A stretch of 15,498 nucleotides of DNA, from the IMG/VR virus record IMGVR_UViG_2563366800_000001. One strand, 5' to 3'. This DNA comes from a virus. Lineage: Duplodnaviria > Heunggongvirae > Uroviricota > Caudoviricetes. The stretch's first letter is position 1, and each line of letters begins with the position of its first letter. The position numbers were made by a program, and so were the translations under genes. Below, one piece after another: positions 1,874-4,729 of this stretch. The notes beneath the pieces are model-generated. The model was not told the origin of the DNA and ran no database searches. It saw nothing but the letters and a program-made list of their open reading frames with translations.

Positions 1874-2878
<1,005 letters not shown>

Positions 2879-3067
2879 CAAAAGCAATTTTTCCGGCTGT
2901 CTGTATACAAAAACGCCGCAAAGTTTGAGCGAAGTCAATAAACTCTCTACCCATTCAGGGCAATATCTCTCTTGCAGGTGAATGCAACGTCAAGCGATGG
3001 GCGTTGCGCTCCATATTGTCTTACTTCCTTTTTTGAATTACTGCATAGCACAATTGATTCGTACGAC

Positions 3068-3095
3068 GCCGACTTTGATGAGTCGGCTTTTTTTT
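3068..3095 (+). terminator. rho-independent terminator (7-bp GC-rich stem, 6-nt loop, T8 tract)
   Basis: GCCGACT-ttgatg-AGTCGGC followed by TTTTTTTT, about 190 bp downstream of the zntB stop. Confidence 0.55.
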
Positions 3096-3152
3096 GCCTG
3101 TTATTTATCAGCGTCTACCCTTTAAGAGTCCACCCAATGACCAGAGGGAAAT

Positions 3153-3326
3153 ATGACGACACTTATTTATTTGCAAATTCCTGTCCCTGAACCGATTCCT
3201 GGCGATCCTGTTCCAGTGCCCGATCCGATCCCTCGCCCGCAACCCATGCCTGACCCACCACCCGATGAAGAACCGATTAAATTGTCGCATCGTGAGCGTA
3301 GATCTGCGAGGATACGCGCCTGCTAA
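3153..3326 (+). CDS. candidate small protein / upstream ORF, proline-rich (57 aa; not in the ORF track, presumably below its size cut-off)
   Basis: ATG at 3153 preceded by AGAGGG at 3143-3148; TAA at 3324-3326. Own translation: MTTLIYLQIPVPEPIPGDPVPVPDPIPRPQPMPDPPPDEEPIKLSHRERRSARIRAC. Ends 30 nt before the dbpA start. Confidence 0.3.
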   Translation: MTTLIYLQIPVPEPIPGDPVPVPDPIPRPQPMPDPPPDEEPIKLSHRERRSARIRAC

Positions 3327-3355
3327 CTTTGCGTCGATGACCACGAGAATAGATT

Positions 3356-4729
3356 GTGACCGCTTTTTCTACCCTGAATGTTTTGCCTCCCGCCCAACTC
3401 ACGAACCTTAATGAGTTGGGTTATTTAACCATGACGCCGGTGCAGGCCGCCGCGCTTCCGGCGATCCTTGCCGGAAAAGATGTTCGCGTGCAGGCGAAAA
3501 CCGGCAGCGGCAAAACGGCGGCTTTTGGCCTCGGCTTGTTACAGCAAATTGATGCGTCGCTATTTCAAACCCAGGCTTTAGTGCTGTGTCCTACGCGTGA
3601 ACTGGCGGATCAGGTGGCAGGTGAATTGCGTCGGCTGGCGCGTTTTCTGCCAAATACCAAAATTTTGACGTTGTGCGGTGGTCAACCGTTCGGTATGCAG
3701 CGTGATTCGTTGCAACATGCGCCGCATATTATCGTGGCAACGCCGGGGCGTTTGCTGGATCACCTGCAAAAAGGCACGGTATCACTGGATGCGTTGAATA
3801 CGCTGGTGATGGATGAGGCCGACCGCATGCTGGATATGGGATTTAGCGATGCCATTGATGATGTCATCCGTTTTGCGCCTGCATCTCGACAGACGCTTCT
3901 GTTTTCGGCAACCTGGCCGGAAGCCATCGCTGCAATCAGCGGACGAGTGCAACGCGATCCTTTGGCGATTGAAATTGACTCAACAGATGCTTTGCCACCC
4001 ATTGAACAACAATTTTATGAGACATCCAGCAAAGGCAAAATTCCTCTGTTGCAACGGTTATTAAGCTTGCATCAGCCATCCTCTTGCGTGGTGTTTTGCA
4101 ATACCAAAAAAGATTGCCAGGCTGTCTGCGACGCGCTGAATGAAGTAGGGCAAAGTGCATTGTCATTACACGGCGATTTGGAGCAACGCGATCGCGATCA
4201 GACCCTGGTACGTTTTGCTAACGGTAGCGCCCGTGTACTGGTCGCGACTGATGTTGCTGCGCGTGGTCTGGATATTAAATCGCTTGAGCTGGTGGTGAAC
4301 TTTGAGCTGGCGTGGGACCCTGAAGTTCATGTACATCGCATCGGTCGTACAGCTCGTGCAGGAAATAGCGGTCTGGCGATCAGTTTCTGTGCTCCGGAAG
4401 AAGCACAGCGGGCCAATATCATTTCTGACATGTTGCAGATAAAACTTAACTGGCAAACGCCGCCAGCTAATAGTTCCATTGCGACGCTGGAAGCAGAAAT
4501 GGCAACGTTGTGTATCGATGGCGGGAAAAAAGCCAAAATGCGCCCGGGTGATGTATTAGGTGCACTGACAGGAGATATCGGGCTTGATGGCGCAGATATT
4601 GGCAAAATCGCCGTGCATCCGGCGCATGTCTATGTCGCGGTCCGTCAGGCTGTTGCTCATAAAGCATGGAAACAGTTACAGGGCGGGAAGATTAAAGGAA
4701 AAACGTGCCGGGTGCGGTTATTAAAATAA
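3356..4729 (+). CDS. dbpA: ATP-dependent RNA helicase DbpA (DEAD-box, 23S rRNA-dependent)
   Basis: 457-aa ORF with GTG start. Carries the Q motif, Walker A (AKTGSGKT), DEAD (VMDEAD), SAT and HRIGRTAR motifs plus the C-terminal RNA-binding domain. Confidence 0.9.
   Translation: MTAFSTLNVLPPAQLTNLNELGYLTMTPVQAAALPAILAGKDVRVQAKTGSGKTAAFGLGLLQQIDASLFQTQALVLCPTRELADQVAGELRRLARFLPNTKILTLCGGQPFGMQRDSLQHAPHIIVATPGRLLDHLQKGTVSLDALNTLVMDEADRMLDMGFSDAIDDVIRFAPASRQTLLFSATWPEAIAAISGRVQRDPLAIEIDSTDALPPIEQQFYETSSKGKIPLLQRLLSLHQPSSCVVFCNTKKDCQAVCDALNEVGQSALSLHGDLEQRDRDQTLVRFANGSARVLVATDVAARGLDIKSLELVVNFELAWDPEVHVHRIGRTARAGNSGLAISFCAPEEAQRANIISDMLQIKLNWQTPPANSSIATLEAEMATLCIDGGKKAKMRPGDVLGALTGDIGLDGADIGKIAVHPAHVYVAVRQAVAHKAWKQLQGGKIKGKTCRVRLLK

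Follow-up and report, generated by a model that had tools for sequence, protein, structure and literature searches.

The open reading frame (ORF) of 57 codons at positions 3153-3326 (+ strand) of the IMG/VR virus record IMGVR_UViG_2563366800_000001, whose whole stretch of 15,498 nucleotides (nt) is called the window here, is ynaL, an already annotated and experimentally detected small-protein gene, and there is nothing new in the ORF itself. Published detection and our comparative analysis show that ynaL is a translated, selected and independent small-protein gene, probably more than a regulatory leader, and that its 3′ end carries a two-part element, frozen even at synonymous sites, which occurs only where the RNA helicase gene dbpA follows. 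We favor a composite reading, with a probability of about 0.6, in which YnaL would be a stand-alone small protein, ynaL and dbpA would share a transcript, and the 3′ third of ynaL would also hold a control element for dbpA. As far as we searched, this dbpA-linked element is undescribed, and it is the part that is worth following up.

The window locus is of the E. coli K-12 type, with the order dgcM / ynaN-zntB / fnrS / ynaL / dbpA / ttcA / intR. An earlier note on this DNA had described a proline-rich 57-codon ORF just upstream of dbpA, and such an ORF is indeed present on the + strand with an ATG start. Its product, YnaL (MTTLIYLQIPVPEPIPGDPVPVPDPIPRPQPMPDPPPDEEPIKLSHRERRSARIRAC, 57 residues), matches the Pfam family PF23677 (YnaL) with 136.9 bits against a cut-off of 27 (E 2.1e-40), residues 1-57 being aligned with positions 1-57 of the 57-position profile. 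The protein has 16 prolines (28%), where 18 had been counted before, and its 32-residue stretch with 16 prolines is the most proline-rich among the six-frame ORFs of at least 50 residues in the window. RefSeq names the window ORF ynaL ('protein YnaL' or 'proline-rich small protein YnaL') and annotates ynaL at the fnrS-ynaL-dbpA position in E. coli genomes; a 601-nt query spanning the gene was matched in 5393 of 5426 complete E. coli genomes, and the matches listed were annotated ynaL.

The gene formerly appeared as the non-coding RNA (ncRNA) C0343, which we take to be ynaL given the matching 57-residue length and the location of C0343 in the ydaN(zntB)-dbpA intergenic region. Transcripts were detected historically under that listing (PMC5331693, PMC3318445), and C0343 was reclassified by RNAcode (Washietl 2011, as cited in PMC4152356 and PMC5331693) as encoding a 57-residue protein and is reported to have been removed from Rfam (PMC5331693). 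Neuhaus et al. gave a ribosome coverage value of 2.49 for C0343 in enterohemorrhagic E. coli (PMC5331693). VanOrsdel et al. (2018; PMC6001520) list the exact window ORF sequence, located between fnrS and dbpA, so that the window product is identical to their E. coli K-12 YnaL; they detected the protein by chromosomal sequential peptide affinity (SPA) tagging and immunoblotting, with accumulation of the full-length tagged product, noted that ynaL was positive in a tetracycline ribosome-profiling (TetRP) screen, and remarked on a possible operon with dbpA. A paper match to 'c0343' in CFT073 was an unrelated locus tag.

Selection on the protein was examined in 80 dbpA loci of Enterobacteriaceae, one per species (Escherichia, Salmonella, Citrobacter, Enterobacter, Klebsiella, Raoultella, Leclercia, Lelliottia, Kosakonia and others), using Nei-Gojobori counts of synonymous (pS) and nonsynonymous (pN) differences against E. 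coli alongside per-codon entropies. The proline-rich reading frame is intact at the same place in all 80 loci, codon positions 1 and 2 being nearly invariant and position 3 near saturation, which is the pattern of a coding gene. The constraint is distributed unevenly along the gene. The N-terminus (residues 2-12, 3156-3188, +) evolves nearly neutrally, with pS 0.696, pN 0.552 and pN/pS 0.79, and the core (residues 13-40, EPIPGDPVPVPDPIPRPQPMPDPPPDEE; 3189-3272, +) shows pS 0.685, pN 0.118 and pN/pS 0.17. For comparison, codons 11-457 of dbpA (from 3386, +) gave pS 0.680, pN 0.065 and pN/pS 0.095, so the synonymous sites of the core are saturated to the same degree as those of dbpA while its amino acids are held. 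An acidic proline-rich core of about 35 residues (DP.P.PDPIPRPQPMPDPPPDEEPIKLSHR) is therefore under purifying selection at the protein level, beyond the proline codons themselves. The same result excludes the scenario in which the proline richness is a by-product of CCN-rich sequence. The conservation and synonymous-substitution check suggested in the earlier note thus came out on the side of a coding gene, and the case it had set against the ORF, namely no ribosome occupancy and no conservation of the frame, is contradicted on both counts. Two other ORFs at this place are artifacts: the antisense ORF at 3108-3344 (-, 78 residues) has the variable sites on its first codon positions and is non-coding, and the overlapping ORF at 3265-3411 (+, 48 residues) is discounted by the codon-position pattern and by a start codon that is not conserved. 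YnaL forms a very small family, with 228 clusters in a set of 5.8 billion proteins and 32 representatives in one of 1.84 billion, and it is restricted to Enterobacteriaceae and Erwiniaceae. One Salmonella enterica variant (P0053, 70 residues) carries a 10-residue internal duplication (PDPRPHPQPM) of the proline-rich core, which shows that expansion of the repeat is possible.

The independence of ynaL from dbpA became evident with divergent homologues, which were collected by a profile search. In Phytobacter (L082), Mixta (L087), Scandinavium (L089) and an Enterobacter-like contig (L090), zntB, fnrS and ynaL are followed by a convergent ttcA, and dbpA is not adjacent to ynaL. In two Erwinia loci (L083 and L088), the order is ynaL, ttcA (+) and dbpA (+), with an inverted ttcA lying between ynaL and dbpA. 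When the 70 nt after the ORF were folded in five of these loci, a stable hairpin was found in four (L082, L083, L087 and L089); the fold in the second Erwinia locus was less clear than the other four, and a hairpin-forming inverted repeat was seen by eye after ynaL of the Enterobacter-like contig. A classic intrinsic terminator, GGCCGGTT-agcac-AACCGGCC-TTTTT, is present only in L083. The proline-rich core is conserved in every one of the homologues away from dbpA, which argues that the peptide is selected independently of that gene, and it is zntB and fnrS, rather than dbpA, that ynaL constantly has as neighbors. The protein ends in ...DPPPH(R/M) or ...DPPPYR in Phytobacter, Mixta and Erwinia, with the three prolines two residues before the stop.

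In the Enterobacteriaceae with dbpA downstream, the last third of ynaL behaves quite differently from the core. Block A (CCGATTAAATTGTCGCAT, codons 41-46, 3273-3290) has pS 0.023 and pN 0.034 with entropies of about 0, and block B (AGATCTGCGAGGATACGCGCC, codons 50-56, 3300-3320) has pS 0.002 and pN 0.019; no strand is assigned to either block. Both are thus frozen at all three codon positions against a background pS of 0.68. The 9-nt linker between them (3291-3299, +; pS 0.730, pN 0.383, pN/pS 0.52) is free to vary in sequence but never in length, and the whole bipartite element spans 48 nt. In at least 13 species, ynaL already stops within the linker (...SHR*) and block B is equally conserved, which indicates that the constraint acts on the nucleotides and not on the tail ERRSARIRAC. 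The linkage to dbpA is seen from both directions: a locus with dbpA (L091) has both blocks intact, whereas the Enterobacter-like contig without adjacent dbpA keeps the peptide end (...DPPPEEVPYKLSRV / P-Y-K-L-S-R) with block A recoded as CCGTATAAACTATCGCGG and block B not seen. Block B is also absent, at up to 3 mismatches, from the Phytobacter (L082) and Erwinia (L083) loci, including the region upstream of Erwinia dbpA. The frozen blocks occur only where dbpA follows ynaL, and the block sequence is found once per E. coli genome. Codon 44 (3282-3284) is TTG in 53 loci and ATG in 27 and is never another leucine codon; both are potential starts, and this probably reflects the nucleotide constraint on block A and not an internal start. 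Considering sequence conservation and linkage together, blocks A and B are probably a cis-control element of dbpA: they could act as an RNA site within its leader, or else as an internal promoter or operator of an unusual sort, and the element may be a cis-regulatory RNA or an operator of a new type.

Several explanations for the freezing were tried and rejected. Pairing of the small RNA (sRNA) FnrS with the ynaL-dbpA leader, evaluated by RNAduplex, was equaled by shuffled sequences at a rate of 0.97 for the whole leader and 0.20 for blocks A and B. Mimicry of, or antisense pairing with, 23S rRNA (for example the helix-92 region on which DbpA acts) scored 17, below the mean of 19.1 for shuffled sequences, 91% of which were as good. 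An overlapping +1 frame does not account for the freezing, as its ATG at 3265 depends on the variable wobble base of a GAT/GAC codon, and neither does a second reading frame across both blocks, as the linker varies freely and stop codons even occur in it. Patterns of the sigma-32, sigma-E, sigma-28, sigma-54, CRP, IHF and CsrA-like kinds were looked for by hand with no convincing match, and in two Klebsiella species the GGA that could form the loop of a CsrA-type hairpin is replaced by CGA. Block B could form a mini-hairpin of 4 base pairs (bp), AUCU-GCGA-GGAU, which is weakened or disrupted in a few species; one lineage with a loop change from GCGA to GAGA keeps a GNRA tetraloop.

The gene dbpA (3356-4729, +), which encodes an ATP-dependent RNA helicase of the DEAD-box type (457 residues), begins with GTG. 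Its initiation region (3344-3369, +) consists of a weak Shine-Dalgarno (SD) sequence, CGAGA (3344-3348), the GTG at 3356 and conserved first codons (ACCGCTTTTTC), and the start region of Erwinia dbpA is similar (GAGAGTAATTTGTGAGCGCTTTTTC). The gap between the two genes is 29 nt in the window, one less than previously stated, and across loci the ynaL stop ranges from about 60 nt upstream of the dbpA start to overlapping it. A terminator scan of the + strand found no terminator-like site in 3100-3480, and ynaL is without a terminator of its own wherever dbpA follows. The E. coli leader folds no better than shuffled sequences (z = -0.23), and RNAalifold detected no conserved attenuator, anti-terminator or alternative hairpins in the ynaL-dbpA leader. 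The one helix it returned is of 6 bp, in which GUCGCA (3284-3289) could pair with UGUGAC (3355-3360) and cover the dbpA GUG; these pairs are identical in 78-79 of 79 sequences, with a covariation term of about 0 and a consensus energy of -3.9 kcal/mol. The ynaL core contains the most C-over-G-rich 78-nt stretch of the + strand in the window (44% C, 20% G), and this RNA would resemble a Rho utilization (rut) site if left untranslated.

Upstream, the terminator that had been noticed ahead of the ORF is real and belongs to FnrS. The fnrS gene lies at 2974-3091 (+; Rfam RF01796, 134.8 bits against a gathering score of 60), and the terminator scan placed its intrinsic terminator at the stem 3068-3087 plus the U run (+). 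The FnrS core precedes ynaL in 79 of 81 loci and is also present in the Phytobacter and Erwinia loci. Abutting the U tract of this terminator is the -35 element of a candidate promoter (3094-3121, +), composed of TTGCCT (3094-3099), a 16-nt spacer and TACCCT (3116-3121). The pattern TTGNNN-N16-TAC(C/G)CT, with a spacer of invariably 16 nt, is found in 78 of 81 loci, and its counterparts are TTGCCT-N16-TACCCT in Phytobacter and TTGCCA-N17-TATGCT in Erwinia. From this conservation, it is likely to be a weak ynaL promoter; read-through from the FNR-activated fnrS into ynaL-dbpA is conceivable. An SD-like AGAGGGA (3143-3149, +) lies 3-4 nt ahead of the ATG, which agrees with the plausible SD sequence described earlier, and GGAGG/AGGG is kept at this site across the alignment. 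In several species (L013, L014, L034, L046-L048 and P0154), the reading frame is open all the way from within fnrS to ynaL (MQRQAMGVALHIVLL...), and such long fnrS-ynaL fusions, which are annotated by some gene callers, are most likely artifacts of missing stop codons in the sRNA.

As for the peptide itself, the D-PPP-D motif pointed out in the earlier note is present at residues 34-38 (3252-3266, +), and it belongs to the class of XPPX motifs whose translation depends on elongation factor P (EF-P; Ude 2013, Doerfel 2013 and Peil 2013, as cited in PMC13393375 and PMC5299641). The three prolines are kept in 74 of 81 loci, only two consecutive prolines remain in three, and four have none; in these four, E. 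albertii and three Citrobacter species, DPSPD replaces the motif and the remaining peptide is unchanged. By analogy with the motif class, YnaL synthesis would need EF-P. AlphaFold2 gave a predicted local distance difference test (pLDDT) value of about 90 for residues 21-40, with no DSSP elements, a predicted template modeling (pTM) score of 0.23 and no fold. An extended chain with high local confidence fits a rod of the polyproline-II type, and the YnaL core is predicted to have this shape. We therefore picture, at the level of a model, an acidic polyproline-II-type peptide that would work as a stand-alone small protein with a partner.

In the composite reading, ynaL would be transcribed from the weak conserved promoter beginning where the FnrS terminator ends, and in Escherichia, Salmonella, Citrobacter, Enterobacter and Klebsiella it would be the first cistron of a ynaL-dbpA transcript, because no terminator follows it. 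The 3′ third of ynaL would double as a cis-acting control sequence for dbpA, and the E. coli tail ERRSARIRAC would be largely a read-through of the frozen element. Any effect of ynaL translation on dbpA, including EF-P-dependent pausing at the prolines, would be ordinary operon polarity or coupling with no dedicated sensor; EF-P-dependent polarity on dbpA is possible. Several points weigh against this reading. Co-transcription is deduced from the absence of a terminator. The candidate promoter agrees with the consensus at 7 of 12 positions and was missed by the consensus scan, which found no sigma-70 promoter in 2800-3500. No Rfam match was found at E up to 10 in 3090-3420, and covariation is uninformative for blocks A and B as their columns are invariant. 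A variable N-terminus with a conserved distal part is reminiscent of arrest or leader peptides, and the retention of the three prolines in 74 of 81 loci at a fixed distance of 6 codons from block A is likewise leader-like. Overexpression of 'C0343' left motility and fimbriae unchanged, with a relative biofilm of 73% (PMC4606813), and the searchable literature yielded no function for YnaL and no link between YnaL and EF-P.

Two other accounts of the ORF concern its nature. That the locus is a non-coding RNA (the old C0343), or CCN-rich sequence with an accidental ORF, has the earlier ncRNA listing and the historical transcripts on its side, but the codon-position pattern, the core pN/pS of 0.17, the frame kept in 80 of 80 loci, the tagged protein, the ribosome coverage and the RNAcode reclassification as cited in PMC4152356 all speak for translation, and there is neither an Rfam match nor a conserved structure at the locus; the non-coding account is effectively refuted already, and its chance is practically nil. 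The suggestion in the earlier note of a TonB-like, envelope-spanning proline-rich protein can draw on weak compositional matches to the proline-rich spacer of TonB (NF008084, E 2.9e-4, 20.8 bits; TonB_N, 11 bits). However, both scores are far under the curated cut-offs (315 and 33 bits, respectively), a hydrophobic run of the length needed for a membrane anchor (about 18 residues or more) is absent, the N-terminal stretch being of about 9 residues and poorly conserved, and the whole protein of 57 residues has no TonB C-terminal domain. Since the likeness is one of composition, we regard a TonB-like protein as very improbable.

The remaining alternatives place the function in the control of dbpA. 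In the leader proposal of the earlier note, now taken as an EF-P-sensing leader ORF, ribosome progress through D-PPP-D would set dbpA expression by covering or exposing the blocks, by opening the pairing over the dbpA GUG, or by allowing Rho to load on the C-rich RNA. Much of the local arrangement is compatible with this: ynaL stands directly before dbpA with no terminator in all 80 loci, the prolines keep their invariant distance from block A, about 30 distal residues are conserved behind a varying N-terminus, dbpA has a GUG start with a weak SD, the block A/GUG helix is the only consensus pair set, and the core RNA would be rut-like if naked. There are also precedents in the control of the PPP leader mgtP by EF-P (PMC5299641) and in the prevention by EF-P of Rho-dependent termination after polyproline stalls (PMC5021804). 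Nevertheless, homologues with the same core are kept without dbpA downstream, and of the five loci folded, four have a stable hairpin within 70 nt. If ynaL were a dedicated leader, it would be expected to accompany the gene it regulates; it does not, so a leader is not supported as its primary role. In addition, many non-proline residues are under purifying selection, seven loci have lost the triple proline, the distance of the ynaL stop from dbpA varies, conserved alternative hairpins or an intrinsic terminator are not found and the E. coli fold is unremarkable, the full-length tagged protein accumulates, and no paper linking EF-P, ynaL and dbpA was found in the searchable literature. In the accessible part of the supplement of the EfpL/EF-P profiling paper, ynaL does not appear, and the Adams 2021 supplements mention neither ynaL nor dbpA. 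Overall, we consider the dedicated leader unlikely. A dual role, in which YnaL is functional and Enterobacteriaceae have secondarily recruited its gene as an upstream cistron coupled by translation, with the blocks as an RNA switch read by the ribosome translating ynaL, would accommodate the dbpA-independent peptide of the outgroups, the missing ynaL terminator wherever dbpA follows, the position of the frozen blocks partly inside the ORF, and the retained GNRA tetraloop in the possible mini-hairpin of block B. This dual role seems rather unlikely to us, since in the species that stop ynaL before block B the block is not traversed by ribosomes and is equally frozen, no covariation is seen, and the mini-hairpin is of just 4 bp, with disruptions in a few species. 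Quite improbable, in our estimation, is the more specific idea that the ynaL 3′ end and the dbpA leader form a sensor of translation performance in Enterobacteriaceae. If it were true, slow Pro-Pro bond formation, due to low EF-P or an impaired peptidyl-transferase centre, would alter the ribosome cover of the frozen element and adjust the synthesis of DbpA. This helicase remodels the part of 23S that surrounds helix 92 of that centre, and catalytic performance would then feed back on how the catalytic centre is assembled.

YnaL resembles the TonB spacer (PF16031, NF008084) in its alternating X-Pro acidic stretch and predicted extended rod, and differs from it in having no membrane anchor or C-terminal domain. 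Arrest peptides of the SecM, TnaC and MifM types are tied to a regulated gene and to a hairpin that sequesters its ribosome-binding site. YnaL shares with them a variable N-terminus, a conserved distal segment that would fill the tunnel, a prolyl motif and a weak initiation region downstream; in contrast, ynaL occurs without the downstream gene, its sole candidate pairing is of 6 invariant bp, and the full-length product accumulates. The 18-codon PPP leader ORF mgtP of the Salmonella mgtCBR operon, which is subject to EF-P-dependent attenuation (PMC5299641), is similar to ynaL as a short upstream ORF with consecutive proline codons, and EF-P-dependent ribosome progress would be expected in both. 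The mgtP leader uses two alternative stem-loops beside the ORF (PMC5299641), and selection does not act on its peptide, whereas ynaL has no conserved alternative hairpins, keeps about 35 residues under purifying selection and persists without its supposed target gene. EF-P/Rho polarity (Elgamal, Artsimovitch and Ibba 2016, PMC5021804) offers a further parallel in the order of a PPP motif followed by a downstream gene and in the C-rich, G-poor ynaL RNA; that work used artificial PPPPPP constructs and cadA, dbpA was not among its candidates, and a Rho site in ynaL is not predictable.

Two other features of the window were recorded. A 15-codon ORF, 'protein YnaN', lies at about 1834-1881 (+; 1435-1482 in L001), 13 nt upstream of zntB. 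The tyrosine recombinase gene intR is found after ttcA, from about 5845 (-; 5446-5601 in L001), and given this position the window probably runs into a prophage on its right-hand side. The prophage at this place in K-12 is presumably Rac.

In conclusion, the comparative data narrow the options for YnaL: the peptide is selected for itself, fnrS and zntB are its constant neighbors, and it is more than just a leader of dbpA. How the ribosome-assembly helicase DbpA is regulated is essentially undescribed, and the frozen bipartite element provides a concrete and mutable target for its study. Should the leader hypothesis nevertheless be true, it would be of the mgtP type or of the EF-P-dependent polarity kind. 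If translation of ynaL affects dbpA, the pair would provide an example of EF-P-dependent polarity from a natural chromosomal locus; the evidence for such polarity to date comes mainly from artificial constructs and the mgt leaders.

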